From contig JAZNWF010000004.1 of assembly GCA_045593165.1 (NCBI GenBank), forward strand, positions 216 through 64,215: 64,000 nucleotides of DNA. Direction: 5' to 3'. Origin of the DNA: Eubacteriales bacterium. Lineage in GTDB: Bacteria; Bacillota; Clostridia; Oscillospirales; CAG-382. Below, in pieces: positions 1,065 through 26,351 of this stretch. The notes below the pieces were generated by a model. It did no database searches. It was not told the origin of the DNA and saw only the letters and a list, made by a program, of their open reading frames with translations. The translations under genes were made by a program, and so were the position numbers. How positions within the stretch are numbered: the first letter of the stretch is position 1; each line of letters begins with the position of its first letter.

Positions 1065-1098
1065 TGCGAGACTTCTGATAAGGAAGTCTCGCAGTTTT
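1065..1098 (+). terminator. Rho-independent terminator
   Basis: 11-bp stem TGCGAGACTTC / GAAGTCTCGCA followed by GTTTT. Confidence 0.8.
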
Positions 1099-1099
1099 A

Positions 1100-1262
1100 T
1101 TCGCCAAATATATTTGGCGAGTGATATTGCTTCGCAGTGATATGATGCTTCGCATCGTGATATTCGGCTACGCCGAGTTTGGCGAATAAAATAACACTGA
1201 AACCGAAAGGTTTCAATAACACTATTGCTTTGCAATAATATCACTCCGACGAAGTCGGAATA
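1100..1262. repeat. Array of short hairpins separated by GTGATAT / ATAACAC / ATATCAC words
   Basis: Hairpins seen: TCGCCAAATATATTTGGCGA, TGCTTCGCA (twice), CGGCTACGCCG, GAAACCGAAAGGTTTC, ATTGCTTTGCAAT and TCCGACGAAGTCGGA. GTGATAT occurs three times in the 5' half, and its complement-like words ATAACAC (twice) and ATATCAC occur in the 3' half. Confidence 0.5.
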
Positions 1263-5071: not shown

Positions 5072-6340
5072 CTAATCAAGCATTATTTTAACTATTTCCT
5101 CATCGGTGGGCTGCATACCTACTCTGCCGATATGACCGACACAGCTTATCGTTTCGCCCGTATCATCCTGCAATATTCCCGTATTGGATTCATACGCTTT
5201 GCCCTGCATTGCAAGTGCGTGAGCGAACAGCGCCGCATCAAGCGCAGACGATATCTTCGCCGCGCACGACGCCTTTGCTCCATCGCAAATTATGCCCGGA
5301 ATATCCGCAAGAGTATTGTCGATAGTATCCTTTATTTGCTTGAGCGTGCCGCCGAGCATATAGGTTATCGAAGCACCTGCCGCACAAGCCGCCGATACTG
5401 CGCCGCAGAATGCCGAAAGCTTGCCGATATATTCCTTCTGATAAACCGTCATCAAGCTTGAAAAGACAAGCGCACGACGCATGGTTTCCTCGGGAATGCC
5501 CTTTTCCCTTGCGTATACGATGATCGGAACGGTAGAGGTGATGCCCTGATTACCGCTTCCCGAGGTTATAATTACAGGCATATCGCAACCATCCATACGA
5601 GCTTCGGACGCGGCGGACGAATATGAACGTATTTTTGTAAACACGCTGTTTGCATATACCTCAAGAATCGATTTTCCGATACCAACGCCGTAATCGCCCT
5701 TCATTCCGCGCTCGGCAATTGCCATATTACAGCTTATTTGCTTATCGGTAAGCTCGCGTATCTTATCGATTTCCACTTCATTGGCAAAGGCAAGTATATT
5801 TTCAATGCTCAAAGCACTTCTGTCGGCAACCTCGCTTGCCGCCTGTAAGCTCTCGTCAACAAAAAGCATTTCGCCATTTTTGGTAATACGTACGATATTG
5901 ATATGGCTGTAACGCACCTCGACGCTCACGTTATCGTTCCCTGCATACATTTCTATAATAAAATGAAGCGGCACAGAGGATGCAAGATATTCTACCTTAC
6001 AGCGATCTTCCTTTATAAAAGCCTTGGTCTTTGCCAGCCCCTCGGGAGTAACTGCCTCTAAAACCTCCATATCGCGTTTTGCATCGCCCGATATTGCACC
6101 AAGGACACACGCAGGCTCGATACCCGTCATTCCGCCCGAATTGGGAATACGCACACAGCGTACGTTTTTGATCATATTGCCGCTACACTTTGCAAGTATA
6201 TGTTCGGGCTCGCATCCCAGCACGTCACGCGCCTTGGCAGCGGCATAAGCCAACGCGATCGGCTCGGTACAGCCCATAGCGGGAACAAGCTCTTCGCGCA
6301 GAATATCCAAAAACGAGCATTTTATCTTTTCATTCAACAT
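5072..6340 (-). CDS. UPF0597/YhaM-type L-cysteine desulfidase family protein (serine dehydratase alpha-like)
   Basis: 422 aa. The N-terminal motif PAMGCTEPIALAYAAAKA and the GSGNQG region are typical of this family. Confidence 0.7.
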   Translation of the reverse strand: MLNEKIKCSFLDILREELVPAMGCTEPIALAYAAAKARDVLGCEPEHILAKCSGNMIKNVRCVRIPNSGGMTGIEPACVLGAISGDAKRDMEVLEAVTPEGLAKTKAFIKEDRCKVEYLASSVPLHFIIEMYAGNDNVSVEVRYSHINIVRITKNGEMLFVDESLQAASEVADRSALSIENILAFANEVEIDKIRELTDKQISCNMAIAERGMKGDYGVGIGKSILEVYANSVFTKIRSYSSAASEARMDGCDMPVIITSGSGNQGITSTVPIIVYAREKGIPEETMRRALVFSSLMTVYQKEYIGKLSAFCGAVSAACAAGASITYMLGGTLKQIKDTIDNTLADIPGIICDGAKASCAAKISSALDAALFAHALAMQGKAYESNTGILQDDTGETISCVGHIGRVGMQPTDEEIVKIMLD

Positions 6341-6542: not shown

Positions 6543-6829
6543 GAACTTAAATGCGTTTGAGCAGGAACAAGTAGATTTAGACGGGCCCATACAGAGAGTT
6601 GTCGGTTGGTGCGAGGCAACGGGAAAAGCTATTTTGAATTCATCCTGTGAGCTGTGCACCGAACAAAAGGTTATCTTTTAAGTAAGCTGCAACGGGCGTT
6701 CCCGTAACAGAACAAGAGTGTTATTGCACTCCCCGAGGCCGCAATCGCGAGAAAGCGGTAAATAGAGGTGGTACCACGAGTCTTCTCGTCCTCTGTATTC
6801 TTTTCAGGAATACAGAGGATTTATTTTTT
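6543..6829 (+). promoter_or_regulatory. T-box riboswitch leader, specifier UUC (Phe)
   Basis: Stem I has GA motifs (GAgCAGGA / TCCTGtGA), an AGAGAG bulge and a TGGTGCGAG distal loop. The specifier loop reads GAA-TTC-A (TTC at 6639-6641). The T-box sequence is GAGGTGGTACCACGAG (6765-6780). The terminator is CCTCTGTATTC/GAATACAGAGG plus a T-run (6790-6829). Confidence 0.85.
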
Positions 6830-6859
6830 GTAAATTATTTTAATATAAAGGTGATAAAA

Positions 6860-8167
6860 ATGGAACAAAGGTATTATCAAAAAGAAATTGAGACCATGCC
6901 CGTTGAGGAGATGAAAAAGCTCCAATCCGAAAAGCTGGTACGTCAGGTAAAGCACGTTTATGAAAACGTTCCTTATTACCGTAACCTTATGGATGAAAAG
7001 GGTGTTAAGCCCGAAGATATCAACGGTATTGAGGATCTTCACAAGCTTCCCTTCCTTACCAAAGCCGATCTTCGCGATGCATATCCTTACGGACTTCTCG
7101 CAAAGCCGCTTGACGAATGCGTACGTATTCAGTCTACCTCGGGCACAACCGGACGCCGTGTTGTTGCTTTCTACACACAAAATGACGTAGACCTTTGGGA
7201 AGATTGCTGTGCACGTGCTATCGTTGCTGCCGGCGGAACCAACAAGGACGTATGTCAGGTTGCATACGGCTACGGTCTTTTCACAGGCGGTCCCGGTCTT
7301 AACGGCGGCTCACACCGTGTAGGTTGCTTGACGCTTCCTATGTCTTCGGGTAATACCGAACGTCAGATTCAATTTATGACCGACCTTTCCGCAACTATTC
7401 TTTGCTGTACCCCCTCCTACGCCGCATATATCGGCGAAACCTTGAAGGAAAAGGGCTATAAGCCCGAGGATATTCCCTTGAAGGCAGGTATTTTCGGTGC
7501 AGAGCCATGGACCGAGGAAATGCGCAAAAATATTGAAGAAACCTTGGGTATAAAGGCATACGACATCTACGGTCTTACCGAAACCTCCGGCCCGGGCGTG
7601 TCGTTCGAATGCTGTGAGCAGACCGGTATGCATATCAACGAGGACCACTTCCTTGCGGAAATTATTGATCCCGACACGGGCGAGGTTCTTCCCGAAGGAA
7701 GCAAGGGCGAGCTTGTATTCACCTCGCTCGACAAGGAGGCGTTCCCGCTTTTACGTTACCGCACACGTGATATCTGCGTGCTCTCGCGCAAGAAGTGCTC
7801 CTGCGGACGTACGCTTATTAAAATGGCGAAGCCAATGGGCAGAACCGACGATATGCTTATCATCCGCGGCGTAAACGTGTTCCCGAGCCAGATCGAAACC
7901 GTACTTCTTAACGAAGGATACGAGCCTAATTACCAGATCATCGTAGACAGACAGAACAACAACGACACGTTCGACATTAACGTTGAAATGACAGCAGAAA
8001 AATTCTCGGACAAGGTAACCGAAATTCTTGCTATGGAAAAATCTCTTGCAAACGCGATGAAGACTATGCTCGGCATCAATCCTACCGTTCATCTTGTCGC
8101 ACCCAAGACTATTGCGCGAAGCGAAGGCAAGGCTGTCCGCGTAGTTGACAAGCGCAAATTGGTTTAA
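6860..8167 (+). CDS. paaK: Phenylacetate--CoA ligase family protein (PaaK / F390-synthetase-like adenylate-forming enzyme)
   Basis: ATG at 6860 lies 6 nt after AAGGTG; the tracked start at 6851 is a GTG inside the RBS. Motifs seen: YYRNLMDEKGVKPEDI, LPFLTKADLRDAYP, QSTSGTTGRRVV, YGLTE, MLIIRGVNVFPSQIE. Confidence 0.85.
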   Translation: MEQRYYQKEIETMPVEEMKKLQSEKLVRQVKHVYENVPYYRNLMDEKGVKPEDINGIEDLHKLPFLTKADLRDAYPYGLLAKPLDECVRIQSTSGTTGRRVVAFYTQNDVDLWEDCCARAIVAAGGTNKDVCQVAYGYGLFTGGPGLNGGSHRVGCLTLPMSSGNTERQIQFMTDLSATILCCTPSYAAYIGETLKEKGYKPEDIPLKAGIFGAEPWTEEMRKNIEETLGIKAYDIYGLTETSGPGVSFECCEQTGMHINEDHFLAEIIDPDTGEVLPEGSKGELVFTSLDKEAFPLLRYRTRDICVLSRKKCSCGRTLIKMAKPMGRTDDMLIIRGVNVFPSQIETVLLNEGYEPNYQIIVDRQNNNDTFDINVEMTAEKFSDKVTEILAMEKSLANAMKTMLGINPTVHLVAPKTIARSEGKAVRVVDKRKLV

Positions 8168-8188
8168 TTAAAGAAAGGGGATATCACA

Positions 8189-8620
8189 ATGGCAATTAAA
8201 CAGTTGACCGTATTCGTAGAAAACAAACAGGGCGCGCTCGTTTCGATTACCGACACGCTCGCACAGAACAACGTGAATATCAGAGCCCTCTCGATTGCCG
8301 AAACAAACGATTTCGGTATACTCCGTCTTATTGTAAATGATGAAGCCACCGCTGAAAAGACTCTTGCGGAAAAGGGTTATCTTATAAAGGTGACAGAGGT
8401 AGTCGGTGTTAAGATAGGCGATGCACCCGGCAAGCTTACCGCCGCGCTCGATGTGCTTGACAGATCGGGTATCAATATGGAATATCTTTACGCGTTTATG
8501 GCGCGTACCGAAAAGCACGCATACGTAGTTCTTCGCGTTGAAGACAATGAAATTGCAGAGGCTGCACTCGAAAACGCAGGCTTCCACCTCATTACAGACG
8601 CAGATATCTGCAAGCTTTAA
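8189..8620 (+). CDS. Tandem ACT-domain (amino-acid-binding) protein
   Basis: 143 aa. Two beta-alpha-beta-beta-alpha-beta ACT-like halves are visible (LTVFVENKQGALVSITDTLAQNNVNIRALS and VGVKIGDAPGKLTAALDVLDRSGINMEYLY). It is co-operonic with paaK. Confidence 0.75.
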   Translation: MAIKQLTVFVENKQGALVSITDTLAQNNVNIRALSIAETNDFGILRLIVNDEATAEKTLAEKGYLIKVTEVVGVKIGDAPGKLTAALDVLDRSGINMEYLYAFMARTEKHAYVVLRVEDNEIAEAALENAGFHLITDADICKL

Positions 8621-8637: not shown

Positions 8638-8672
8638 GCATCGGACGTCGATTTGGCATCCGATGCTTTTTT
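8638..8672 (+). terminator. Rho-independent terminator
   Basis: GCATCGGA / TCCGATGC stem followed by TTTTTT. Confidence 0.8.
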
Positions 8673-8698: not shown

Positions 8699-8727
8699 TT
8701 GACAAACAAGGCGTATTGTGATAAAAT
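8699..8727 (+). promoter_or_regulatory. Sigma-A promoter of T-box operon 2
   Basis: TTGACA (8699-8704), 17-nt spacer, TAAAAT (8722-8727), with an upstream TGtGa. Confidence 0.65.
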
Positions 8728-8734
8728 TCATCAC

Positions 8735-9016
8735 AATAATAAACGCAGTGATGCGGAATAGTATGCAAAAGCATTCGCCGTACAGAGAGATGCCGTTTGG
8801 TGCGAGGCATTGGGAATTCTTTGCAGAACTCACCGCGGAGCGGCTGCCGTGAAAATCAGACGTAAGGGCAGACGGGAGCTCCCGTAACAGAGTAAAGATG
8901 TTTTTGCATCTAAGGGCATCCGCAACGGATGAAGAAGAGTGGTACCGCGGAAAAGTTAACTTTGTTTTTAACGTTTTCGTCTCTTTGAACCGACAAGGAG
9001 ACGGGAGCGTTTTTTT
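8735..9016 (+). promoter_or_regulatory. T-box riboswitch leader, specifier CUC (Leu)
   Basis: GA motifs GAtGCGG / CCGCgGA; AGTA in the 5' specifier loop; upper helix TGCAAA/TTTGCA; AGAGAG bulge; TGGTGCGAG distal loop. The specifier reads GAA-CTC-A (CTC at 8829-8831). The T-box sequence is AGAGTGGTACCGCGG (8936-8950). A terminator hairpin at 8972-9009 is followed by T7. Confidence 0.85.
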
Positions 9017-9070
9017 GTCGGTTGAACTAAATCTTCTTTGAAAATTTCCGGATCACGAAAGGGTTAGAAA

Positions 9071-10459
9071 ATGAAAAAAATCAACATTTCCGATATCACA
9101 CTCAAAAAGCTTTCGCAGGATCGCAGCTTCTCGCTTCTTTTCCGTGAAAAGACCGCAATCGCAGTATGTGCAGATTCGCTCGGTGCAAACACTGTTGAGC
9201 TTGCACCCGTGAAGAACGCGCGCGAGGATGCTATCATTTGTAAAACGATCTCGCAAAACGTACGCAACGCAACACTAGCTATACCCGTAGGCTTTACTGC
9301 CGACGAGGTTCAGACTGCTTGGGAATGCATAAAGGATGCCAAATCTCCTCGTTTGCAGATAGAGATTCCCGCATCCACCGTTTTGATGGAATACACATAC
9401 CACATCAAATCCGAAAAAATGCTTACGAAAATTGCAGAATTGGTAAAATGTGCAAAATCGTTCTGCGAGGATATCGAATTCTCCGCGCTTGACGCAACGC
9501 GCGCAGACGTTGATTTTCTCGTTGCCGCGGCAAAGGAAGCAGAAAGTAACGGTGCGAGCATTATTACCATTTGCGATGATGCAGGAGTATCTCTCCCGCA
9601 AGATATCGCGAATCTTACCGCAAAGGTAAAGGAAAACGTATCCATACCTGTATACGTTCAGGTATCCGATAAAATCAACATGGCGGTCGCTTCTGCAATT
9701 GCGGCGATCTCCGCAGGTGCAGACGGTATCAAATGCGCTATGGCAGGCAAGGACGTTCTTCTCACCGGCGAGTTGGCTGATGCGCTTAAAGCCTGCAATT
9801 CGCAGATAGGCGCAGAAACCGATTTAAATAACACAAAAATCCATACAAGTATAGAGGATATGCTTTCCAATATCAATCACGAAGCATATGAAAACGAAGC
9901 AACAGTAAGTGAAAAGAAGAGAATGCTTCTCGATGCTGACAGCACAATTGCACAGGTAGCACATGCAACACAGATACTTGGCTACGAATTATCCGATTCC
10001 GATATCGGTAACGTACACAAGGCGCTTATCCAGGTATGTGAAAAGAAGGATACCGTAGGTGCAAAGGAGCTCGAAGCGCTTATTGCAAGCTCGGCTATGC
10101 AAGCTCCCTCTACATATCATCTCGAAAGCTACACTACCAACAGCAGTAATCTTGCAAGCTCTATGTCGCAGGTTACATTGAAATGCAACGGCGAAACCAT
10201 TTGCGGTGTCAGCACGGGCGACGGACCTATTGATTCGGCATTCCGAGCTATTGAACAGTGTATTGGCTTCCATTACGAATTAGACGATTTTCAGGTACAG
10301 TCCGTAACTGAAGGAAAGGAAGCGTTGGGCTCTGCTCTCGTACGCTTGCGTAACAACGGCAAGCTATATTCGGGTAACGGCATTTCGACCGATATTGTTG
10401 CGGCAAGCATAAGAGCATACATAAATGCACTCAACAAGATCGTATTCGAGGAGGCATAA
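9071..10459 (+). CDS. 2-isopropylmalate synthase (LeuA) paralog with degenerate catalytic motifs and an intact LeuA C-terminal regulatory domain
   Basis: It is collinear with LeuA, but DTTLRDGEQ is replaced by DITLKKLSQ, the H-x-H metal motif by QVSDK, and no HESGIHQDG is present. The C-terminus GDGPIDSAFRAIEQCI...GKEALGSALVRLRNNGKLYSGNGISTDIVAASIRAYINALNK matches the LeuA allosteric domain. Confidence 0.7.
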   Translation: MKKINISDITLKKLSQDRSFSLLFREKTAIAVCADSLGANTVELAPVKNAREDAIICKTISQNVRNATLAIPVGFTADEVQTAWECIKDAKSPRLQIEIPASTVLMEYTYHIKSEKMLTKIAELVKCAKSFCEDIEFSALDATRADVDFLVAAAKEAESNGASIITICDDAGVSLPQDIANLTAKVKENVSIPVYVQVSDKINMAVASAIAAISAGADGIKCAMAGKDVLLTGELADALKACNSQIGAETDLNNTKIHTSIEDMLSNINHEAYENEATVSEKKRMLLDADSTIAQVAHATQILGYELSDSDIGNVHKALIQVCEKKDTVGAKELEALIASSAMQAPSTYHLESYTTNSSNLASSMSQVTLKCNGETICGVSTGDGPIDSAFRAIEQCIGFHYELDDFQVQSVTEGKEALGSALVRLRNNGKLYSGNGISTDIVAASIRAYINALNKIVFEEA

Positions 10460-10460
10460 A

Positions 10461-12920
10461 ATGAAAATCGTATTCTCAACAAAAAACGTAAGCAGGTCAT
10501 CCTTTCTCGACACCTGCCGTTATGCGTACGATTACGGTTTTGAAGGCTTCGAAATATACGATGCCATCAAGGAGCGCAGTCAGCATCACGACAGCATTTT
10601 ACGCCGCGACCGTGTTTCAGACGCAAAAAGAAAGCTGATAAACCGCAATCTTTCCGTATCCGCACTCAGCTATCCCTATTCACTTGAACGTAACGACGCG
10701 AATGCGGAAACGATTTTGAAATACGTGGATATGGCGGCAAGCGCGGGCATCGCTTATATTATAGTCCGTATTGAAAATGAAGTTGAATTCGACGTATTAA
10801 AGGAAAAATTAGAGCCTGCAGTCAAGCGTGCAGAAATCTCCGACGTCGGTATACTTTTGGAAACCGTAGGATACCTTTCCGACACGGAAAAGGTAATAGA
10901 AATAATCAACCGCTTTTCTTCTGCCGCAATAGGCGCATCGTGGAACGTACGAGGCACTTATTTCGGCGCAGGTGAAACGGCTGAAACCACCATCAAGGTA
11001 CTCGGCGCATACATAAAATACGTACGCTTGGGCGATATGAAGGACGGCAAGACCGTGCTTATCGGAGAGGGCGAGCTTCCTGTGGAAAAGCTCCTCGGTG
11101 CGCTTTCCTCGCTGAATTTCGACGGATTTATCTGCGCGGCGTGGAACGAGGAAATAAACGACGCAGATATCGTGCTCACCCATTTCACAAATTACATCGC
11201 ATCTTTAAGCCGCGACAAAAAGGAGCACGACCGTTATTATTACAACCGCTCGAGAACCGGCACGTTCGTATGGAAGAAATACGACGTTATCGACGCAACC
11301 TTCTCCGACGTGCTTGACACAATGGTAGAAAACTACCCCGACCAGTACGCCTTCAAATACCCAACGCTTGATTACACGAGAACCTACGAGCAGTTCCGCC
11401 GTGACGTAGACGAATGTGCGGCAGCGCTCATTTCTTTGGGCGTAAAGGCGGGCGACCACGTCGCTGTTTGGGCAACCAACGTACCCGAATGGTATATTAC
11501 CTTCTGGGCAACCACAAAAATCGGTGCAGTTCTGGTAACGGTAAATACCGCATACAAGATTCACGAAATAGAATACCTGTTAAAGCAGTCCGACACTCAT
11601 ACGCTCGTTATGATCGAGTACTGTAAAGACATCAACTACAAGGAAATTATACAAGAGCTCTGCCCCGAGCTTGAAACGCTTACTCCCGGAAAACCGCTTT
11701 ATTCGAAAAACCTTCCCTTCTTGCGCAACGTTGTAACCGTTGGATTTTCGATGAACGGCTGTCTGGATTGGAATCAGATGCTTTCGCGTTCCTCGCTCGT
11801 TCCCCGCGAAGAAGTGCGCAGACGCGCTTCCTTGGTTAAGCCCGATGACGTATGTAATATGCAATATACCTCGGGTACGACAGGCTTCCCCAAGGGTGTT
11901 ATGCTCACTCACCGCAACATAGTAAACAACGGCAAGACAATCGGCGACAGAATGGACCTTTCCACCGCCGACCGTATGATGATACAGGTTCCGATGTTCC
12001 ATTGCTTCGGCATGGTGCTTTCGATGACCTCTATGATGACCCACGGCGGCACGCTTTGCCCTATTCCCTATTTCTCGCCCAAATCATCGCTTGCCTGCGT
12101 AAACGACGAGCACATAACCTGCTTCAACGGCGTTCCTACTATGTTTATCGCGATGTTCAACCACAAGGATTTTGCAAAAACCGACTTCTCGTATATGAGA
12201 ACCGGTATCATGGCAGGCGCAAACTGCCCTGCAGACCTTATGCGCCGTGCGGCAGATGAAATGAAGATGCGCGAGATAATCTCAGTTTACGGACAGACCG
12301 AGGCTTCGCCCGGCTGTACTATGGGCGAGGTAAACGAGGACATTGACCACCGCGTTGAAACGGTAGGCAGCCCCTTCCCCGGTGTTGAATGCAAGGTTAT
12401 CGACCCCGAAACGGGAGAAGAACTTCCCGACGGAGAAAGCGGCGAATTTGTAGCGCGCGGCTTCAATATTATGAAGGGTTATTACAAGATGCCCGAGGCA
12501 ACCGCACAAGCGATCGATGCTGACGGTTGGCTTCACAGCGGTGATATATGCTGTCGCACCCCCGACGGATACTACAAAGTAACCGGCAGATTGAAGGATA
12601 TGATAATCCGCGGCGGCGAAAACCTTTACCCGCGCGAAATCGAAGAGTTTTACCTTACCAACCCTAAGGTACGCGACGTTCAGGTTGTTGGCGTTCCCGA
12701 CGAAAAGTACGGCGAGGAATGCTGTGCGTGGGTAATACTCCACAAGGGCGAAACGGCAGACGAAAACGAAATGAAGGAATTCGGCAATGCGTTTATCGCG
12801 CGTCACAAGGTTCCGAGATATTTCCTTTTCGTCAATGAATTCCCGATGAATGCCGCAGGTAAAATACTCAAATACAAGATGCGTGACGAATCTGTTGAGA
12901 TTTTAGGGCTCAAAAAATAA
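10461..12920 (+). CDS. Fusion protein: xylose-isomerase-like TIM barrel (sugar phosphate isomerase/epimerase fold) plus an AMP-dependent acyl-CoA ligase (FadD/YngI-like)
   Basis: ATG at 10461 follows GAGGAGG; the tracked start at 10425 overlaps the upstream gene. About 270 N-terminal aa look like a TIM barrel (FEGFEIYD, ILLETVG, YVRLGD). The C-terminal part has AMP-binding motifs: MQYTSGTTGFPKGVMLTHRN, YGQTE, GWLHSGD, IIRGGENLYPREIE, AAGKILK. Confidence 0.75.
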   Translation: MKIVFSTKNVSRSSFLDTCRYAYDYGFEGFEIYDAIKERSQHHDSILRRDRVSDAKRKLINRNLSVSALSYPYSLERNDANAETILKYVDMAASAGIAYIIVRIENEVEFDVLKEKLEPAVKRAEISDVGILLETVGYLSDTEKVIEIINRFSSAAIGASWNVRGTYFGAGETAETTIKVLGAYIKYVRLGDMKDGKTVLIGEGELPVEKLLGALSSLNFDGFICAAWNEEINDADIVLTHFTNYIASLSRDKKEHDRYYYNRSRTGTFVWKKYDVIDATFSDVLDTMVENYPDQYAFKYPTLDYTRTYEQFRRDVDECAAALISLGVKAGDHVAVWATNVPEWYITFWATTKIGAVLVTVNTAYKIHEIEYLLKQSDTHTLVMIEYCKDINYKEIIQELCPELETLTPGKPLYSKNLPFLRNVVTVGFSMNGCLDWNQMLSRSSLVPREEVRRRASLVKPDDVCNMQYTSGTTGFPKGVMLTHRNIVNNGKTIGDRMDLSTADRMMIQVPMFHCFGMVLSMTSMMTHGGTLCPIPYFSPKSSLACVNDEHITCFNGVPTMFIAMFNHKDFAKTDFSYMRTGIMAGANCPADLMRRAADEMKMREIISVYGQTEASPGCTMGEVNEDIDHRVETVGSPFPGVECKVIDPETGEELPDGESGEFVARGFNIMKGYYKMPEATAQAIDADGWLHSGDICCRTPDGYYKVTGRLKDMIIRGGENLYPREIEEFYLTNPKVRDVQVVGVPDEKYGEECCAWVILHKGETADENEMKEFGNAFIARHKVPRYFLFVNEFPMNAAGKILKYKMRDESVEILGLKK

Positions 12921-13009: not shown

Positions 13010-13272
13010 ACAAACAACTATGACGAAGACGGTCGGATTGCCAAATCTTCAGAGAGTTGGCGGTTGCTGCGAGCCAACGATGAAGCTTTCCAATGACCCA
13101 TCACTTCCGAGTTGGAGGACCGAAAATTTTATGAGTAGGCTCCTTCCGTAAAGCTGCGTTAAAGCAAGGGCTTGTCAGAGCCTATAAGGTGGCGGAATTT
13201 ATTTCCGCAATTTGAGTGGTACCGCGAGTTGTATGACCCGTCTCAAAGCAAAACTTTGGGACGGGTTTTTTG
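13010..13272 (+). promoter_or_regulatory. T-box riboswitch leader, probable specifier AUC (Ile)
   Basis: GA motifs GAcGAAG / CTTCcGA; AGAGAG bulge; GTTGGC/GCCAAC helix with a GCTGCGA distal loop. ATC-A (13100-13103) sits directly 5' of the basal helix, in the same register as the other two T-boxes. The T-box sequence is TGAGTGGTACCGCGAG (13213-13228). The terminator is ACCCGTC/GACGGGT plus T6 (13236-13272). Confidence 0.75.
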
Positions 13273-13331
13273 TTTTATTCAAATCTGAATTATCCGTATG
13301 GAGCGTACAGAAACGAAAGGAGCAAAACGAC

Positions 13332-15632
13332 ATGGAAATGAATTTGAAAGAGGTAGCAGGCAGAATCAAAGCGCTGCGCGAGGCAAAGGGCTATTCGCAG
13401 GAGGAGCTTGCAAAGCTTACCGGTGTATCGGTTGAGGATTACAAGCTTTTAGAGCAGGGCGAAACCGATTTCAGCTTTACCTTCATCTACAAGTGTGCAA
13501 AGGCGTGCAACGTTGAGGTTGTTGACATTATCGAGGGTACGAGTACTACTCTTACCTCGTTTGCAATTACCCGTAAGGGCGAGGGTCTTGAAATAATTAA
13601 AAAGCAGGCAGGCGTTTATTACAACCTTGCACCTAAATTCAAGGATAAGCTTGCCGAGCCGTTTTTGGTAAAGATGCCCTATATGGCAGAGGAGCAGAAC
13701 GCGCCTATCAAGCTTAATTCGCACAACGGTCAGGAATTTGACGTTATCGTTAAGGGCTCACTCAAGGTCCAGGTCGGCGGACATATTGCCGTTTTGAACG
13801 AGGGTGACTCGATATTCTACAACAGTATCATTCCCCACGGTATGATTGCTGTAAGCGAGGGCGGATGTGAATTCCACGCTGTCGTTTTGAATCCGCAGGA
13901 CGGTGACTACGCCGAATCCTATCCCGAAGCACCGTTCATCGCCGCAAAGACCGCCATCTCCGAAAACACGGTAAAAACCGTTGCAGATAACTTTATCGAA
14001 TCCTCATACGACGAAAACGGCGTATTTAACGGTATCGCCTTCAAGAACGACGACAAATTTAATTTCGCGTTTGACTGTGTAGATGCTATCGCAGAAAAGG
14101 ACCCCGACAAGCTTGCTATGCTTTGGGTTTCCAACGATAAAGCTGAACGCAGATTCACCTTCCGCGATATGAAGCGTTACTCGGCAAAGACAGCCAACTA
14201 TTTTGAATCGCTCGGTATTAAAAAGGGCGACACCGTAATGCTTGTATTGAAGCGTCATTATCAATTCTGGTTCTGTATGCTCGCACTCCACAAGATCGGC
14301 GCGATCGCTATCCCTGCTACCAACCAGCTTGTTGAGCACGACTTTACGTACAGATACAAGGCTGCACAGGTTAAAGCAATCGTATGCACCGCAGATGGCG
14401 AGGTTTCAACCGAGGCAGAAAAGGCTGCAAAGGATTTTCCCGGCATGATCAAGGTTCTCGTTGGCGGCAAAAAGGACGGTTGGAACGACTTTAATCTTGA
14501 AATGGAACGCTTCAGCACTCATTACGAACGCACCGAAGATTCTCCCTGCGGAAATGATCCGATGCTGATGCTTTTCACCTCCGGAACAACCGGTTATCCC
14601 CGCATCGCAACGCATTCCTTCAAGTATGCCTTAGGTCACTACCCCACCGCAAGACATTGGCACAACGTCAATCCCAACGGTCTGCACTTCACCATCTCCG
14701 ATACAGGCTGGGGCAAGGCGCTTTGGGGCAAGCTTTACGGACAATGGCTCTGTGAAGCGGCTACCTTCACCTATGACTTCGACAGATTCCGTTCGGAAGA
14801 TATTCTTCCCCTCTTTAAGCAATATAACATCACTACCTTCTGCGCACCTCCTACAATGTACCGATTCTTTATCAAGGAAGACCTTTCGAAATACGATCTT
14901 TCCTCTATCGAATATGCCACCACTGCAGGCGAAGCGCTCAACCCCGAGGTATTCAATCAGTTCAAAAAGGCTACCGGTCTTACCATTATGGAGGGCTTCG
15001 GTCAGACTGAAACCACGCTTTCTATCGCAAACTTCGTAGGATCTACTCCCAAGATTGGCTCTATGGGTAAGCCCAGTCCCTTGTACGACGTCAAGATCCT
15101 CGATCCCGACGGAAACGAATGTAAGACGGGCGACACGGGTGAGATCTGTATCAGCACCAAGAACGGAACTCCTTGCGGCTTATTTATCGGATATTATCTC
15201 GACGAGGAAAAGACCAACGACGTTTGGCACGACGGTTATTACCACACAGGTGACCAAGCGACTATGGACGAGGACGGATATCTTTGGTACGTTGGACGTA
15301 TCGACGACGTTATCAAATCTTCCGGTTACCGTATCGGCCCGTTCGAGATCGAAAGCGTTATTATGGAGCTTCCCTACGTGCTTGAATGTGCTATCACGCC
15401 CGTTCCCGATGAGATCCGCGGTCAGATCGTTAAAGCGACCATCGTTCTCACCAAGGGCACTGTAGGCACTGACGCACTGAAAAAGGAAATTCAGGAATAC
15501 GTAAAGACACACACCGCACCTTATAAGTATCCCAGAATAGTAGATTTCGTTGACGAGCTTCCCAAGACCATCAGCGGCAAGGTAAGACGTGTCGAGATCC
15601 GCAAAAAAGATTTGGAAAAATCCAACGGTTAA
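13332..15632 (+). CDS. Tripartite fusion: XRE-type HTH plus cupin plus an AMP-forming medium/short-chain acyl-CoA synthetase (ACS/MACS family)
   Basis: ATG at 13332 follows AAGGAG; the tracked start at 13212 lies inside the T-box terminator. HTH_3: LKEVAGRIKALREAKGYSQEELAKLTGVSVEDYKLLEQGE. Cupin: NSHNGQEFDVIVKGSL...GDSIFYNSIIPHGM. ACS core: LFTSGTTGYPRIA, GFGQTE, YHTGD, SSGYRIGPFEIES, ISGKVRR. Confidence 0.8.
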   Translation: MEMNLKEVAGRIKALREAKGYSQEELAKLTGVSVEDYKLLEQGETDFSFTFIYKCAKACNVEVVDIIEGTSTTLTSFAITRKGEGLEIIKKQAGVYYNLAPKFKDKLAEPFLVKMPYMAEEQNAPIKLNSHNGQEFDVIVKGSLKVQVGGHIAVLNEGDSIFYNSIIPHGMIAVSEGGCEFHAVVLNPQDGDYAESYPEAPFIAAKTAISENTVKTVADNFIESSYDENGVFNGIAFKNDDKFNFAFDCVDAIAEKDPDKLAMLWVSNDKAERRFTFRDMKRYSAKTANYFESLGIKKGDTVMLVLKRHYQFWFCMLALHKIGAIAIPATNQLVEHDFTYRYKAAQVKAIVCTADGEVSTEAEKAAKDFPGMIKVLVGGKKDGWNDFNLEMERFSTHYERTEDSPCGNDPMLMLFTSGTTGYPRIATHSFKYALGHYPTARHWHNVNPNGLHFTISDTGWGKALWGKLYGQWLCEAATFTYDFDRFRSEDILPLFKQYNITTFCAPPTMYRFFIKEDLSKYDLSSIEYATTAGEALNPEVFNQFKKATGLTIMEGFGQTETTLSIANFVGSTPKIGSMGKPSPLYDVKILDPDGNECKTGDTGEICISTKNGTPCGLFIGYYLDEEKTNDVWHDGYYHTGDQATMDEDGYLWYVGRIDDVIKSSGYRIGPFEIESVIMELPYVLECAITPVPDEIRGQIVKATIVLTKGTVGTDALKKEIQEYVKTHTAPYKYPRIVDFVDELPKTISGKVRRVEIRKKDLEKSNG

Positions 15633-15703: not shown

Positions 15704-16924
15704 TTAAAGCGAATATTTACGGAATATCTTTTTACCCTTCTTGAGCTTGATGCCCTCAGCAAGCGCAGCTTCCGAAACGGTCTGACCGACGGAGGTTACC
15801 TTTTCACCGTCGATGCTGATGCCGCCCTGCTCGATAAGACGGCGGGCTTCACCCTTGCTCTTTGCAAGCTCGCCCAACACAAGAAGATCGATAACGCTGA
15901 TATTGCCGTCAACCAAAAGCGAAGCGTCTACAACGGTTGAGGGCATATTTGCGTCGTCGCCCTCGCCGCTGAAGAGTGCACGCGAGGTTGCTTCCGCCTT
16001 CTTTGCCTCTTCCTCGCCGTGAACGAGCTCGGTAAGGCTATACGCGAGTATGGATTTCTTTTCGTTGATGCGCGAACCGTCCCATTTTTCCATTTCGTCG
16101 ATTTCTTCGATAGGAATGAAGGTGAGCATACGGATGCACTTCATAACGTCAGCATCATCAACGTTGCGCCAATACTGATAAAATTCAAAGGGCGAGGTCT
16201 TGTTGGGATCGAGCCATACTGCATTGCCTGCGGTCTTGCCCATTTTCTTGCCCTGCGAGTCGGTAAGGAGGGTTATCGTCATCGCATTAGCGTCCTTGCC
16301 GAGCTTACGTCTTATAAGCTCGGTACCGCCGAGCATATTCGACCACTGGTCGTCGCCGCCAAACTGCAGATTGCAATCGTAGTTCTTGAAAAGATAATAG
16401 AAGTCGTAGGACTGCATTATCATATAGTTGAATTCGAGGAAGGAAAGACCCTTCTCCATTCTTTGCTTGTAGCATTCGGCTCTGAGCATATTGTTTACCG
16501 AGAAGCAGGCACCGACGTCGCGAAGCATATCAACGTAATTGAGGTTCAACAGCCAATCGGCGTTGGTGATCATCATTGCCTTATCTTCACCGAATTCGAT
16601 AAACTTTTCCATCTGCTTTTTGAAGCAATCGGCGTTATGGTCGATATCTTCCTTGGTGAGCATTTTTCTCATATCGCTTCTGCCCGAGGGGTCGCCGATC
16701 ATTGTCGTGCCGCCGCCGATAAGCGCAATAGGCTTGTTGCCCGCCATCTGAAGACGCTTCATAAGAGTGAGCGCCATAAAATGACCTGCGGTAAGGCTGT
16801 CTGCGGTGCAGTCAAAGCCGATATAAAACTTTGCCTTGCCGTTATTGACAAGCTCTCTGATCTCTTCCTCATTGGTTACCTGAGCTATCAGTCCGCGCGC
16901 TTTTAATTCTTCATAAATCTGCAT
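15704..16924 (-). CDS. tyrS: Tyrosine--tRNA ligase
   Basis: 406 aa. The class I HIGH-like motif (TADSLTAGHF), the KMGKT (KMSKS) motif and a C-terminal S4 domain are present. Confidence 0.95.
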   Translation of the reverse strand: MQIYEELKARGLIAQVTNEEEIRELVNNGKAKFYIGFDCTADSLTAGHFMALTLMKRLQMAGNKPIALIGGGTTMIGDPSGRSDMRKMLTKEDIDHNADCFKKQMEKFIEFGEDKAMMITNADWLLNLNYVDMLRDVGACFSVNNMLRAECYKQRMEKGLSFLEFNYMIMQSYDFYYLFKNYDCNLQFGGDDQWSNMLGGTELIRRKLGKDANAMTITLLTDSQGKKMGKTAGNAVWLDPNKTSPFEFYQYWRNVDDADVMKCIRMLTFIPIEEIDEMEKWDGSRINEKKSILAYSLTELVHGEEEAKKAEATSRALFSGEGDDANMPSTVVDASLLVDGNISVIDLLVLGELAKSKGEARRLIEQGGISIDGEKVTSVGQTVSEAALAEGIKLKKGKKIFRKYSL

Positions 16925-16998
16925 TTTTCCGATGCCTCCTATAAAATAAAGCCGAATAGGAAAAACCTTATCGGCGATAACTGTCCTTTGATTTGCAT

Positions 16999-17027
16999 AT
17001 TATATCATATTCGGTCATAAAAATCAA
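16999..17027 (-). promoter_or_regulatory. Sigma-A promoter for tyrS
   Basis: On the minus strand: TTGATT, 17-nt spacer, TATAAT. Confidence 0.55.
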
Positions 17028-17228
17028 TCCTTTTTAAGCATAAGTTAATGCTGCAGATAACGCCATTACAGCAAAAGGACACCTTTTGGCGCACCTGCGA
17101 TAAAGCAGGTGCACCTTCTCTTGCTGTACAGCAAGATATGTGTTATAATAAAAATAAGTCAATAATCTCTGCAAGGACAACTGAGGTATTCGTATGCTAA
17201 AATGTAAGCACAGAAAGGAGATGACTTT

Positions 17229-18787: not shown

Positions 18788-19408
18788 TCAGGTATTCTTC
18801 ATTATAACCGATCCAACGCATTCACTTACGTGCTCGCAAGCGTCGGCACAGGATTCAAGGCAATCGAATACCTTACGCCAGGAAACTATTGCAAGAATAT
18901 CGTTGGATTCCTTTGTAAGATCACGCATTGAAGAGAGGTAAAGCTTGTCGCATTCCTCCTCGACGTCATTAAGCTCGATAATAAGCTCGTGTATCTTCTT
19001 GGACTTTTTGAAATTTTCAAACTCTCCCATAAGCGTGCAGAGAAGCTCGCAGGATTTTACGATATTTTTAGCAAACGCAACGGCAGAGGGATATACTGTC
19101 TGAATATTGTATATATAGAACTTCTGCAATATTTCTTCGATTTTATCGGTGACCTCGTCGAGATTATGGCTTAACATATCCAAATCCTCACGGTCGATGG
19201 GAGTTACGAACGCCTTTGCCAATGCTTCTGTCATTTCGTGCTTCTTGTTATCGGCGTTATGCTCGATAGCGTGCATTTCCTCAAGCATAGTCGTGATATT
19301 TTCGGGGTCGTAATTTTCAAGACATTTTACAAGATAGCATGCTGCCTGCTTGGAAAGCTCGGTGCTTGCAGAGAAGTTATCGAAATAGAATTTATCGCCC
19401 TTAGCCAT
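18788..19408 (-). CDS. DUF47 / PhoU-like putative phosphate transport regulator
   Basis: 206 aa, helical and acidic. It lies immediately downstream of the Pit transporter, which is the conserved pairing. Confidence 0.75.
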   Translation of the reverse strand: MAKGDKFYFDNFSASTELSKQAACYLVKCLENYDPENITTMLEEMHAIEHNADNKKHEMTEALAKAFVTPIDREDLDMLSHNLDEVTDKIEEILQKFYIYNIQTVYPSAVAFAKNIVKSCELLCTLMGEFENFKKSKKIHELIIELNDVEEECDKLYLSSMRDLTKESNDILAIVSWRKVFDCLESCADACEHVSECVGSVIMKNT

Positions 19409-19422
19409 TTTTTATTTTCCTT

Positions 19423-20484
19423 TCAAGTAAATATCATCATAAACAGTTTAGTCATCAAGAAGCCCACAAGTCCGCATCCGGGGAAGGTAAGCACCCAAGT
19501 GAATACCATTTCCTTAACCACGCCGAAGTTGATTGCAGAAACCCTCTTCACCGCGCCAACGCCCATAATAGACGTTGTCTTTGCGTGTGTGGTTGATACA
19601 GGCAAGCTGAATACCGAGCAGAACAGAAGCGACAATGCCGCCGCGATATCCGCCGAGAAGCCCTGATATTTTTCGAGCTTAACCATATCCATACCAACTG
19701 ATTTGATTATCTTTTTGCCGCCCATAGCAGTACCGAGTGCCATTACTACCGAGCAGAGAACCATAAGCCACATATATTCGCCTGCGATATCTATATCGGA
19801 GGGCAGGCTTTCACCCTTGGACATATACACGCAAAGCAGGATAACGCCCATAAACTTCTGACCGTCCTGCGCGCCGTGCATAAATGCCATCGATGCCGCA
19901 CCCGCGATCTGCGCACCCTTGAAGAAGGGTTCGGTTTTAGGTCGATTTGCTTTGTAGAATAGAATGGTAACCAATTTACAAACTATCCAACCCAAGCCAA
20001 AGCCGAGTGCAACCGAAATGCCGATACCGTATACGACCTTTATCCATTCGTCGCCGTTTACACCGCCCAAGCTGTTGTGAAGTGCTATGGCACTACCGGT
20101 AAGACCTGCGATCAGCGCGTGGCTTTCGCTGGTGGGAATACCGAACACCCAAGCAAGCGTTGCCCAAAGAACTATAGCAAACAACGCCGCGCTTAACGCG
20201 ATAATGGCTTTATCGGGGTCTGCGCCGAAATCCACCATTTTGGTTATCGTTTCGGCAACGGTAGCGTTGATGAGCGTCATTACGAAAACGCCCAAGAAAT
20301 TGAACACCGCCGCCATAAGTATTGCCGCCTTTGGTGGCATACACCTTGTTACGACACACGTTGCGATAGCATTGGGAGCATCCGTCCAACCGTTTACCAG
20401 AATTACGCCTAACGTCAGCGATACTGCGATAAACAGAAGCGGATTATCCGTCATTTGATTCCAAAATGCTAAAATAGAATCCAT
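19423..20484 (-). CDS. pit: Inorganic phosphate transporter, PiT family
   Basis: 353 aa polytopic membrane protein. The NGWTDAPNAIAT and GAQDGQKFMG motifs are typical of PitA/PHO4. Confidence 0.85.
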   Translation of the reverse strand: MDSILAFWNQMTDNPLLFIAVSLTLGVILVNGWTDAPNAIATCVVTRCMPPKAAILMAAVFNFLGVFVMTLINATVAETITKMVDFGADPDKAIIALSAALFAIVLWATLAWVFGIPTSESHALIAGLTGSAIALHNSLGGVNGDEWIKVVYGIGISVALGFGLGWIVCKLVTILFYKANRPKTEPFFKGAQIAGAASMAFMHGAQDGQKFMGVILLCVYMSKGESLPSDIDIAGEYMWLMVLCSVVMALGTAMGGKKIIKSVGMDMVKLEKYQGFSADIAAALSLLFCSVFSLPVSTTHAKTTSIMGVGAVKRVSAINFGVVKEMVFTWVLTFPGCGLVGFLMTKLFMMIFT

Positions 20485-20718: not shown

Positions 20719-22140
20719 TTAAAGATTATAATATCTTTCGAATTCGGCAGGATGAGGTATAGAAGCAAGCTGTCTGCATTCGTCACGCTTTGTCTTGATG
20801 AAATTGCGGATAAGCTCCTCGGGGAATACTCCGCCCTCGGTAAGATAAGCAAAATCCTTTTCTAAACAGTCGAGTGCCTCGTCAAGCGACACGGGAAGAC
20901 TCTGAAGCTTTGCCTTTTCCTCTTCGGGCAGGTTATAAAGGTTCATATCGTAGGGACCCCAGCCGTTTGCATGAGGATCGATCTTATTCTTTACACCGTC
21001 AAGCCCTGCCATAAGGATAGCCGCATAGCAGAAATAGGGGTTGCAGGTCGCATCGGGATTACGAAGCTCAAAGCGACGCTTATCGGGGCTCTTTGCATAT
21101 GCGGGAATACGAATAACCGCACTGCGATTGGAGGTTGCATAACCAACGGTTACGGGCGCTTCGAAGCCGGGCACCAAGCGCTTGAAGGAGTTGGTGCTGG
21201 GGTTGGTGATAGCACACAGTGAGCCGATATGCTTCAAAAGACCGCCGATGAAATAATGTGCGGTTTCGCTGAGATGCGAATAGCCGTTATCGTCGGAAAA
21301 TACAGGAACACCGTCCTTGAACAGAAGCATATGGACGTGCATACCGCTGCCTGCCTCACCGTATATGGGCTTTGGCATAAATGTTGCGCTCTTGCCGTAC
21401 TTAAGAGCGGTATTGTGAATGATATACTTTATCATCATCGTAGCGTCAGCCATATGAACGACCTCACCAAGCTGAGGTTCGATTTCGAACTGACCCGAAG
21501 CCGCAACCTCGGGATGATGGTAGTTTATTTCAATGCCTGCCTCTTTCATAAGAAGGCACATTTCACTACGGCATTCATAAGACGTATCGAACGGCTTTGC
21601 GATATGATAGTTCTTCTGCTTCGCAACTACAACACCGTGTCCCTCGTTATCGGAGTTCCAATAGGATTGCTTTGCATCTACGGTAGCACCGATATGCTTG
21701 CCGTCCACGTTCCAGGTAACGTTATCGAAAAGATAAAACTCAAATTCGGGCAATATCTTCATTTCGTCGGCAACGCCGCTGTTCTTCATATATTCTACAG
21801 CCGCTTTGATTATATTGCGGGGATATTGAGCTAAGGGACGGTTTTCGTGAGTATCGATTATCATCGCGTTGCCCGTCATAGAAAGCGTGGGAATATCGCA
21901 GAAGGGGTCGATGACCGCGGTATCGGGATCGGGGATAAAGACCATATCACTTTTTTCAACCACAGCGTAGCCATAGTTTGACGCGTCAAAGCCTATACCG
22001 CTTTTCATCGTATCCTCCGAAAAGTTTTCAGCAGGAATAGTAACGTGACGGTACTGACCGTTTATATCGACCATTTTAAAGTCGACCATTTTAATTCCGT
22101 TTTCTTTGATAAGGTTAAGAACATCGTGAACATTTGCCAT
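20719..22140 (-). CDS. glnA: Glutamine synthetase (type I)
   Basis: Start at MANVHDVLNL (ATG at 22140, RBS AGAGG). GS motifs are present: beta-grasp FKMVDINGQYRHVTIP, EVAASGQFEIE, GSGMHVHMLL, NPSTNSFKRLVPGFEAP. Confidence 0.9.
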   Translation of the reverse strand: MANVHDVLNLIKENGIKMVDFKMVDINGQYRHVTIPAENFSEDTMKSGIGFDASNYGYAVVEKSDMVFIPDPDTAVIDPFCDIPTLSMTGNAMIIDTHENRPLAQYPRNIIKAAVEYMKNSGVADEMKILPEFEFYLFDNVTWNVDGKHIGATVDAKQSYWNSDNEGHGVVVAKQKNYHIAKPFDTSYECRSEMCLLMKEAGIEINYHHPEVAASGQFEIEPQLGEVVHMADATMMIKYIIHNTALKYGKSATFMPKPIYGEAGSGMHVHMLLFKDGVPVFSDDNGYSHLSETAHYFIGGLLKHIGSLCAITNPSTNSFKRLVPGFEAPVTVGYATSNRSAVIRIPAYAKSPDKRRFELRNPDATCNPYFCYAAILMAGLDGVKNKIDPHANGWGPYDMNLYNLPEEEKAKLQSLPVSLDEALDCLEKDFAYLTEGGVFPEELIRNFIKTKRDECRQLASIPHPAEFERYYNL

Positions 22141-22267
22141 AGGCCTATACCTCTTTCGTTCGTTGTTATTAAAAATAATATAGCAAAAACCGTGTTGTCT
22201 TGTCAATATACTGATTAAAACATAATAAAAGCCTCGGTTTCACCGAGGCTTTTATGCATATTCTAAT

Positions 22268-26149: not shown

Positions 26150-26225
26150 TGGTTGCGGAGACAGGATTCGAACCTGCGACCTCCGTGTTATGAGCCCGAC
26201 GAGCTACCAACTGCTCTACCCCGCG
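26150..26225 (-). tRNA. Initiator tRNA-Met (CAU)
   Basis: Minus strand: CGCGGGGTAGAGCAGTTGGTAGCTCGTCGGGCTCATAACACGGAGGTCGCAGGTTCGAATCCTGTCTCCGCAACCA. It has the C1xA72 mismatch, an encoded CCA and anticodon CAT. G30 faces A40, breaking one of the three G-C pairs. Confidence 0.9.
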
Positions 26226-26262
26226 ATATTGATTTATATTAACATAAACGTTACTTTTAAAA

Positions 26263-26351
26263 TGGTGCCGGAAACCGGGCTTGAACCGGTACGAGGGGTG
26301 AACCTCACTGGATTTTAAGTCCAGGGCGTCTGCCAATTCCGCCACTCCGGC
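26263..26351 (-). tRNA. tRNA-Leu (UAA), class II with a long variable arm
   Basis: Minus strand: GCCGGAGTGGCGGAATTGGCAGACGCCCTGGACTTAAAATCCAG...GGTTCAAGCCCGGTTTCCGGCACCA. The anticodon loop is CTTAAAA. Confidence 0.9.

Follow-up and report, generated by a model that had tools for sequence, protein, structure and literature searches.

The locus described here raises the question of what a protein built like 2-isopropylmalate synthase (LeuA) does once its catalytic site has been lost, when its gene opens a leucine-controlled operon directly before an acyl-CoA ligase. The gene, open reading frame (ORF) 9071-10459 (+), lies in a 64,000-nucleotide stretch of DNA from Eubacteriales bacterium (GenBank assembly GCA_045593165.1, contig JAZNWF010000004.1, positions 216 to 64,215 of the forward strand), the whole of which is called the window below. 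Its product was named LeuAL, for a non-catalytic LeuA paralogue. The reading of LeuAL as a pseudoenzyme that has kept the LeuA fold, as a first-pass annotation of this DNA had proposed, is well supported by sequence alignments, by a confidently predicted structure and by a comparison of family members. Its role is put forward more cautiously: by analogy, LeuAL may be the leucine-sensing regulatory subunit of the neighboring ligase, a proposal whose chances we judge to be a little short of even.

ORF 9071-10459 was confirmed as a real gene encoding 462 amino acids (aa). Pfam assigned HMGL-like (PF00682) to aa 4-226 with 108.7 bits against a gathering score of 29, and LeuA_dimer (PF08502) to aa 331-457 with 112.4 bits, the latter match running over model positions 4-130 of 131 and covering the complete domain. 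A TIM barrel followed by a LeuA_dimer domain is the architecture of LeuA, with which the protein had earlier been noted to be collinear. The protein is divided as follows:

9071..9775 (+): degenerate DRE-TIM (HMGL-like) barrel, LeuAL aa 1-235, assigned from PF00682, alignments and an AlphaFold2 model, with K12/K13, L140, Q197/S199 and A225 at substrate and metal positions
9776..10090 (+): shortened linker, aa 236-340, with subdomain I deleted and the helical subdomain II kept, assigned from the alignment with LeuA-length relatives
10091..10459 (+): LeuA allosteric (dimerisation) domain, aa 341-462 plus the stop codon, assigned from PF08502, with its GDGP motif at 10217-10228

Every NCBIfam LeuA equivalog also matched LeuAL, each at less than half of its curated cut-off (NF002086 at 255.1 bits against 532 and TIGR00973 at 237.1 bits against 598.7), and the best equivalog match was split into two stretches with model positions ~263-313 missing. 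The first-pass annotation had expected that pipelines would call this protein LeuA. At least the NCBI pipeline (PGAP) does not, as LeuAL homologues are named 'hypothetical protein' there and the equivalog scores are far below the cut-offs.

The catalytic site was evaluated by aligning LeuAL with the barrels of the solved LeuA structures 3rmj and 3ewb, and by a MAFFT alignment in which 106 LeuAL-family representatives were combined with six relatives of LeuA length (motifs fully canonical in four). The DTTLRDGEQ motif reads D8-I-T-L-K12-K13-L-S-Q16, placing K12 at the substrate Arg and K13 at the metal Asp. The HxH metal motif is replaced by Q197-V-S199, the catalytic Glu of the 'ED' motif by L140, and NG(I/L)GERAGN by A225-GKDV, in which A225 takes the place of the Asn and the loop is shortened by a four-residue deletion. 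GKHSGR is replaced as well, and a deletion of ~35-40 residues has removed the accessory subdomain I with its HESGIHQDG segment (HxSGIHQDG, which holds the catalytic His) from all family members. Each substitution listed in the first-pass annotation was upheld by the two sets of alignments taken together. The R-D-x-E of the DRE-TIM metallolyase D-R-E signature reads K-K-L-S in LeuAL and varies in the family, and the metal site is missing; membership in the DRE-TIM superfamily is given by the (beta/alpha)8 barrel fold and the Pfam score. Among the 106 representatives the catalytic and pocket columns were variable (E, Q, K, N, D or S in the metal-Asp column and E, Q, S, C, R or A in the first-His column), indicating that no new fixed set of residues has taken over at the catalytic positions.

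The AlphaFold2 model of LeuAL reached a pLDDT of 89 overall and above 90 for the barrel (aa 1-235), with low confidence at aa 271-282 only. Using Foldseek, the modelled barrel superposed on the Listeria LeuA barrel 3ewb with a root-mean-square deviation (rmsd) of 1.8 A and a TMt of 0.91. The model of the full chain matched Mycobacterium tuberculosis LeuA, including its leucine-bound form 3fig, and the top structural match was 6e1j, a methylthioalkylmalate synthase (MAM). LeuAL is derived from bacterial LeuA by descent, and it is not itself a LeuA because the score cut-off is not reached and the metal site, the substrate residues and subdomain I are all missing. LeuAL combines loss of the catalytic residues with retention of the fold and of purifying selection, as regulatory pseudoenzyme subunits of the HisZ kind do.

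HMMER, run exhaustively against the representatives of 50%-identity clusters, returned ~110 full-length LeuAL clusters of ~460 aa that were 29-51% identical to the window protein and distinct from the LeuA-length proteins of 500-516 aa. LeuAL loci were present in at least 595 species-representative genomes, and the 80 of these loci that were listed all came from metagenome-assembled genomes of gut or rumen Clostridia (Acutalibacteraceae, Christensenellaceae, Oscillospiraceae, Ruminococcus and Eubacteriales). The search also returned representatives in which a LeuAL-type regulatory domain (55-60% identity) is joined to membrane-protein fragments (MFS, MBOAT, 7TMR-HDED in P0240, P0252 and P0257). 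These and others were considered as informative fusions and rejected, as the matches to membrane families were weak and partial and the contigs short; faulty gene calling or chimeric assembly most likely accounts for them.

LeuAL has kept the C-terminal allosteric/dimerisation domain of LeuA with the Gly-rich loops of the leucine site. The motifs G383-D-G385-P-I-D, T413.G415..A418.G420, G435.G437.S-T-D441-I and A449-Y..A453.N455 are retained and common to the LeuA-length relatives, and the two leucine-site loops, GxGPxDA and GxGxSTDI, are invariant across the LeuAL family and present in the LeuA-length relatives too. Both G383 and G385 are invariant in the family. By motif, G385 was matched to G516 of yeast Leu4, which lies in a G-N-G-P motif reported in the leucine site and whose substitution G516S desensitises the enzyme (PMC6558412).

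Mean pairwise identity in the LeuAL family was 57% for the regulatory domain and 34% for the barrel, whereas the LeuA-length relatives, a small canonical sample, gave 37-39% for the regulatory domain and 46-51% for the barrel. Constraint between the domains is inverted in the LeuAL family relative to LeuA. Among close LeuAL relatives the ratio of nonsynonymous to synonymous substitution rates (dN/dS) was lowest in the regulatory domain, at 0.01, compared with 0.08 in the linker and 0.10 in the barrel, demonstrating that the gene is functional and that the allosteric domain is its most constrained part. The earlier claim of a conserved C-terminal LeuA domain is borne out by this value and by the 112.4-bit Pfam match. 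In the barrel, D8, P100, S102, M106, E107, Y108, K113, D141, A142, R144, D169 and P176 were nearly invariant in the family. Most of these are also found in aligned LeuA (motifs DTT, TS, HMEYKLK, EDAxR and PDT), the exceptions being P100 and, partly, K113, and the shared residues are probably scaffold residues.

The gene after LeuAL (10461-12920) encodes a xylose-isomerase-like TIM barrel fused to an AMP-forming acyl-CoA ligase:

10461..11210 (+): xylose-isomerase-like TIM barrel with a degenerate metal site, fusion aa 1-250, assigned from Pfam PF01261 and a structure model
11286..12920 (+): AMP-forming acyl-CoA ligase, fusion aa 276-819, proposed isovalerate-CoA ligase, assigned from Pfam AMP-binding (E = 9e-96) with AMP-binding_C and from NCBIfam PRK12583 (666 bits)

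The fusion directly followed LeuAL in all 88 loci with a complete LeuAL gene, so its placement as first described for the window holds across the family, and the pairing was kept in distant members at 29-51% identity. The gap to the fusion ATG (10461) in the window is 1 nucleotide (nt) and not the 2 nt given earlier. A 1-nt gap was found in 62 of the 88 loci and a 4-nt overlap in 5. The two genes share a transcript, and their translation is probably coupled.

A PDB sequence search with the TIM domain of the window fusion returned no significant match, and its fold was assigned from an AlphaFold2 model (pLDDT 90, pTM 0.86), to which UlaE-type metal-dependent sugar 3-epimerases were closest with a TM of 0.75. 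In the window clade E134 of the metal site is kept, and N162, G165, R189 and A227 stand in place of D, H, H and E; this pattern was seen in 52 to 65 of the 66 complete fusions, depending on position. The metal set E/D/H/H/E is intact in the distant member L084 and partly lost in L086, L088 and L089. The fusion barrel is a second pseudo-enzyme domain of the system, with its metal ligands lost progressively across the family. The PDB relatives of the ligase domain were acyl-CoA synthetases, and the ligase was 87-97% identical among the listed loci with one exception at 77%. The dN/dS of the fusion was 0.07 for the barrel and 0.024 for the ligase. Together with those of LeuAL, these values separate two slow-evolving cores, the leucine-type regulatory domain and the ligase, from two faster non-catalytic barrels.

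Pairwise distances of LeuAL were also compared with those of the two fusion domains. LeuAL distances correlated with those of the fusion TIM domain when the ligase was controlled (partial r 0.54-0.67), and gave a partial r of 0-0.2 with the ligase when the TIM domain was controlled. The method is weak and the co-variation is suggestive, fitting an interface between LeuAL and the fusion barrel.

Upstream of LeuAL, the leader contains the following features:

8699..8727 (+): sigma-70-like promoter, TTGACA, 17-nt spacer and TAAAAT with an extended TG, from a consensus scan (11/12 matches)
8739..8987 (+): T-box leader with a Leu specifier, Rfam RF00230 at 127.8 bits against a gathering score of 93
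8970..9017 (+): intrinsic terminator of the T-box, an 18-pair stem followed by a T run, alternative to the antiterminator, from a terminator scan and the sequence

The promoter lies just 3' of the terminator hairpin of the preceding ACT gene (~8638-8672), which was read directly in the sequence. The specifier reads GAA-CUC-A at 8826-8832 with the codon at 8829-8831, and the T-box core AGUGGUACCGCG was located at 8938-8949; the terminator takes up 8970-9011 of the segment listed above. Score, specifier, core and competing terminator are all those of a leucine-class T-box, in agreement with the earlier description of LeuAL as the first gene of a Leu T-box operon, and the operon is turned on by uncharged tRNA-Leu via this CUC T-box. 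A sequence library labelled transcriptomic (X1) held contigs 90-99% identical to the window (most 90-95%) that jointly covered about the whole operon at flat depth, carrying no strand or abundance information and with DNA carry-over possible.

Among the 88 loci with a complete LeuAL gene, upstream sequence was sufficient in 84; the T-box core motif was present in 76 of these and absent in 8. Specifier codons were read from a MAFFT alignment of the upstream regions together with cmscan alignments, which replaced a crude regular expression that gave unreliable calls. In T-box-bearing loci the aligned specifier column held CUC with few CUG. The CUG specifiers occurred in L019 and L081, and the T-box upstream of LeuAL in L064 carried CCC, which is Pro at face value; these could be sequencing or alignment artefacts or real variants. 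The subclade L051, L052, L056, L058 and L062 had no T-box before LeuAL, only a promoter-like TTGACA/TATAAT, and L086, L087 and L091 also lacked the core motif.

Further enzyme genes adjoin the LeuAL-fusion pair in at least 12 loci, upstream or downstream of it and in the same orientation. They encode a 2-oxoacid:ferredoxin oxidoreductase of four subunits (Fer4 delta, POR_N alpha, TPP_enzyme_C beta and POR gamma) and a branched-chain aminotransferase of class IV (Aminotran_4). In the T-box-less subclade the pair is followed, all in one orientation, by the branched-chain aminotransferase, a small P-loop protein, the oxidoreductase alpha, beta and gamma subunits and an HTH-cupin-ligase. Annotation, which covered about half of the 64-kb window, revealed no leuBCD or ilv genes and none for an oxidoreductase or aminotransferase, and canonical leuA or leuABCD turned up neither in the window nor across the 1.2 Mb of related loci examined.

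A ligase, an oxidoreductase and an aminotransferase under a Leu T-box make up the enzyme set expected for a route from isovalerate through isovaleryl-CoA and 2-ketoisocaproate to leucine, and a catabolic role would be senseless for an AMP-forming ligase induced by leucine starvation. Reductive carboxylation leading from branched-chain volatile fatty acids to leucine is a classical route in rumen and gut anaerobes, and at the physiological level the volatile-fatty-acid route, which also serves isoleucine, valine and phenylalanine, was established as early as the 1960s. To our knowledge, the genes and the control of the activation step in the branched-chain-acid route are poorly defined. Judging from its conserved neighbors, the fusion ligase most likely starts the isovalerate-to-leucine route.

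The LeuAL operon is the middle one of three consecutive T-box operons in the window, each built around an acyl-CoA ligase (6547-8620, 8739-12920 and 13011-15632). The first, under a Phe (UUC) T-box, encodes the phenylacetate-CoA ligase PaaK and an ACT-pair protein, and the third, under an Ile (AUC) T-box, encodes an HTH-cupin-MbcS-like ligase fusion. As the Phe operon has the ACT-pair protein and the Ile ligase a fused cupin, every ligase is paired with a small-molecule-binding module. As a set, the three operons resemble a salvage block that would make amino acids from volatile fatty or aryl acids.

The best explanation of these observations combines a dead LeuA paralogue, an isovalerate route and leucine control of the ligase, and as a whole we consider it to have an even chance of being correct. 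The ligase would activate isovalerate to isovaleryl-CoA, the four-subunit oxidoreductase would reductively carboxylate this to 2-ketoisocaproate, and the class IV aminotransferase would turn 2-ketoisocaproate into leucine. Like canonical LeuA, LeuAL would dimerise and bind leucine at the regulatory-domain dimer. It would contact the fusion, probably at the N-terminal barrel, and restrain the ligase at high leucine, as regulatory subunits do in analogous systems. Such feedback would act as a fast control on top of the slower T-box control, and would be the counterpart on the salvage route of the control that canonical LeuA exerts on the de novo route. The fuller picture, in which the dead LeuA paralogue joins the dead sugar-epimerase-like barrel of the ligase fusion in a heteromeric allosteric switch that subjects an ANL-family acyl-CoA synthetase to leucine feedback, is tentative and rates somewhat below even. 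We know of no acyl-CoA ligase on which a pseudoenzyme imposes feedback control by an amino acid. Full-text literature searches on LeuA pseudoenzymes, T-box-controlled acyl-CoA ligases and isovalerate-to-leucine genetics found no description of the LeuAL family or of this operon type.

Several points weigh against this explanation. Isovalerate as the ligase substrate is taken from gene context, which is its sole basis. The LeuAL barrel is itself under purifying selection (dN/dS 0.10), for which the proposed model gives no reason, and the regulatory domain might be so highly conserved because it serves as a protein-protein interface and not as a ligand site. In LeuA, subdomain I helps to relay the allosteric signal, through His379 and Tyr410 in the M. 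tuberculosis enzyme (PMC9860122); signal relay in LeuAL must differ, because subdomain I is deleted. Lastly, the mirror-tree correlations between LeuAL and the fusion barrel are confounded by evolutionary-rate differences.

The alternative that survives best makes LeuAL an obligate structural partner or activator of the ligase, as MbtH-like proteins are for adenylating enzymes, or a scaffold for ligase, oxidoreductase and aminotransferase. Leucine feedback would then play no part and the regulatory domain would be a dimer or docking interface. The strict gene order and tight coupling of the two genes agree with such a role, as do the purifying selection on both TIM barrels in spite of their degeneration and the co-variation of LeuAL distances with the fusion TIM domain. 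However, the invariant residues are exactly the Gly-rich loops of the LeuA leucine site, which a mere interface would not need, and the ACT and cupin modules on the sister ligases point to ligand sensing. We regard a purely structural role as unlikely.

LeuAL could also sense leucine and act on something other than the ligase, namely the oxidoreductase, the aminotransferase or gene expression. The conserved leucine-site motifs fit this proposal, and oxidoreductase and aminotransferase genes are frequent neighbors of the pair. However, these genes adjoin it in a minority of loci and none was seen in the annotated part of the window, while the TIM/ligase fusion alone is invariably adjacent (88/88), making a different target quite improbable.

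Less probable again is that LeuAL is still an enzyme whose barrel catalyzes a different, metal-independent reaction of the pathway. In its favor, the barrel is well folded and under purifying selection, and D8, P100, S102, E107, Y108, K113, D141, R144 and D169 are near-invariant. However, apart from P100 and partly K113 most of these residues are found in LeuA too and are read as scaffold, the pocket and catalytic positions vary freely in the family, and the subdomain that caps the pocket, subdomain I, is deleted. The remaining possibility, a decaying leuA pseudogene without function, would account for the lost catalytic motifs and subdomain and is effectively refuted by the ~460-aa frame, which is intact across over 100 divergent clusters and no fewer than 595 species genomes, by dN/dS values of 0.01-0.10 and by the conserved synteny.

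Leucine control of the ligase by LeuAL, the preferred explanation, was set beside known systems. LeuAL resembles LeuA, or isopropylmalate synthase (IPMS; TIGR00973; 3rmj, 3ewb, 1sr9, 3fig), in its barrel (1.8 A superposition), its LeuA_dimer domain and its leucine-site motifs. It differs in lacking the metal ligands, substrate Arg, catalytic Glu, GERAGN loop and subdomain I, in its inverted constraint, and in being encoded with an acyl-CoA ligase instead of leuBCD. The closest functional analogue known to us is HisZ, a paralogue of histidyl-tRNA synthetase that is catalytically dead and regulates the short-form ATP phosphoribosyltransferase as one of its subunits. In both cases a dead paralogue of an enzyme for the same amino acid would provide end-product control of the first committed step catalyzed by another enzyme. 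HisZ is unlike LeuAL in fold and ancestry, and for LeuAL both complex and allostery are proposed only. ACT subunits, such as the AHAS small subunit IlvN/IlvH and the ACT-pair protein of the window (8189-8620), share with LeuAL the layout of a separate small-molecule-binding subunit encoded beside the catalytic subunit, but LeuAL is an entire former enzyme of 462 aa whose regulatory fold is that of LeuA and not an ACT domain.

MAM kept catalysis and lost the allosteric domain. Together with the plant IPMS isoforms that have no regulatory domain, MAM (6e1j) belongs to the same superfamily and was repurposed by module loss; LeuAL is the mirror image, with the allosteric domain kept and catalysis lost. 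MbcS of Staphylococcus aureus is an AMP-forming branched-chain acyl-CoA synthetase that activates branched short-chain acids and feeds fatty-acid synthesis (PMC10026030). Among NCBIfam models, MbcS gives the third ligase of the window its best match. MbcS has no LeuA-like partner listed, and the partner ligase of LeuAL is of a different, PRK12583-like subfamily and carries an N-terminal TIM barrel.

The ligase of the Ile operon is part of a longer protein:

13332-15632: XRE-type HTH, cupin and MbcS-like acyl-CoA ligase triple fusion, 766 aa

ATG 13332 is its likely start, as the TTG at 13212 chosen by the ORF finder falls inside the T-box and terminator. Fusion of a DNA-binding domain to a ligase is unusual. 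In related loci the HTH-cupin-ligase is often tandemly duplicated (for example L022, L028, L031 and L089), and in L022 it lies behind an AUC T-box. Elsewhere in the window, the tyrosyl-tRNA synthetase gene at 15704-16924 (-) had no Rfam T-box match upstream (16925-17228), despite the three neighboring T-boxes. A Gut-1 RNA (RF01706, 58.6 bits) was found at 1092-1168 (+) and two tRNA genes at 26153-26351 (-). Ordinary neighbors included a serine dehydratase alpha-like gene at 5072-6340 (-), a PhoU-like gene with a PHO4-family phosphate transporter at 18788-20484 (-) and a glutamine synthetase at 20719-22206 (-).

For the gut Clostridia that carry it, the LeuAL locus offers a complete and testable gene set consisting of a T-box, a candidate sensor, a ligase, an oxidoreductase and an aminotransferase. 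As LeuAL has the Pfam architecture of LeuA and is widespread in these bacteria, domain-based metabolic reconstructions may wrongly credit them with the first step of leucine synthesis. If the regulatory role is true, LeuAL would show clearly how an allosteric module can be reused, with the entire enzyme scaffold retained and catalysis given up. The allosteric module of de novo leucine synthesis would then have been moved, as a whole ex-enzyme, onto the first step of isovalerate reductive carboxylation, and LeuAL would be a natural leucine-binding module with possible use as a biosensor.

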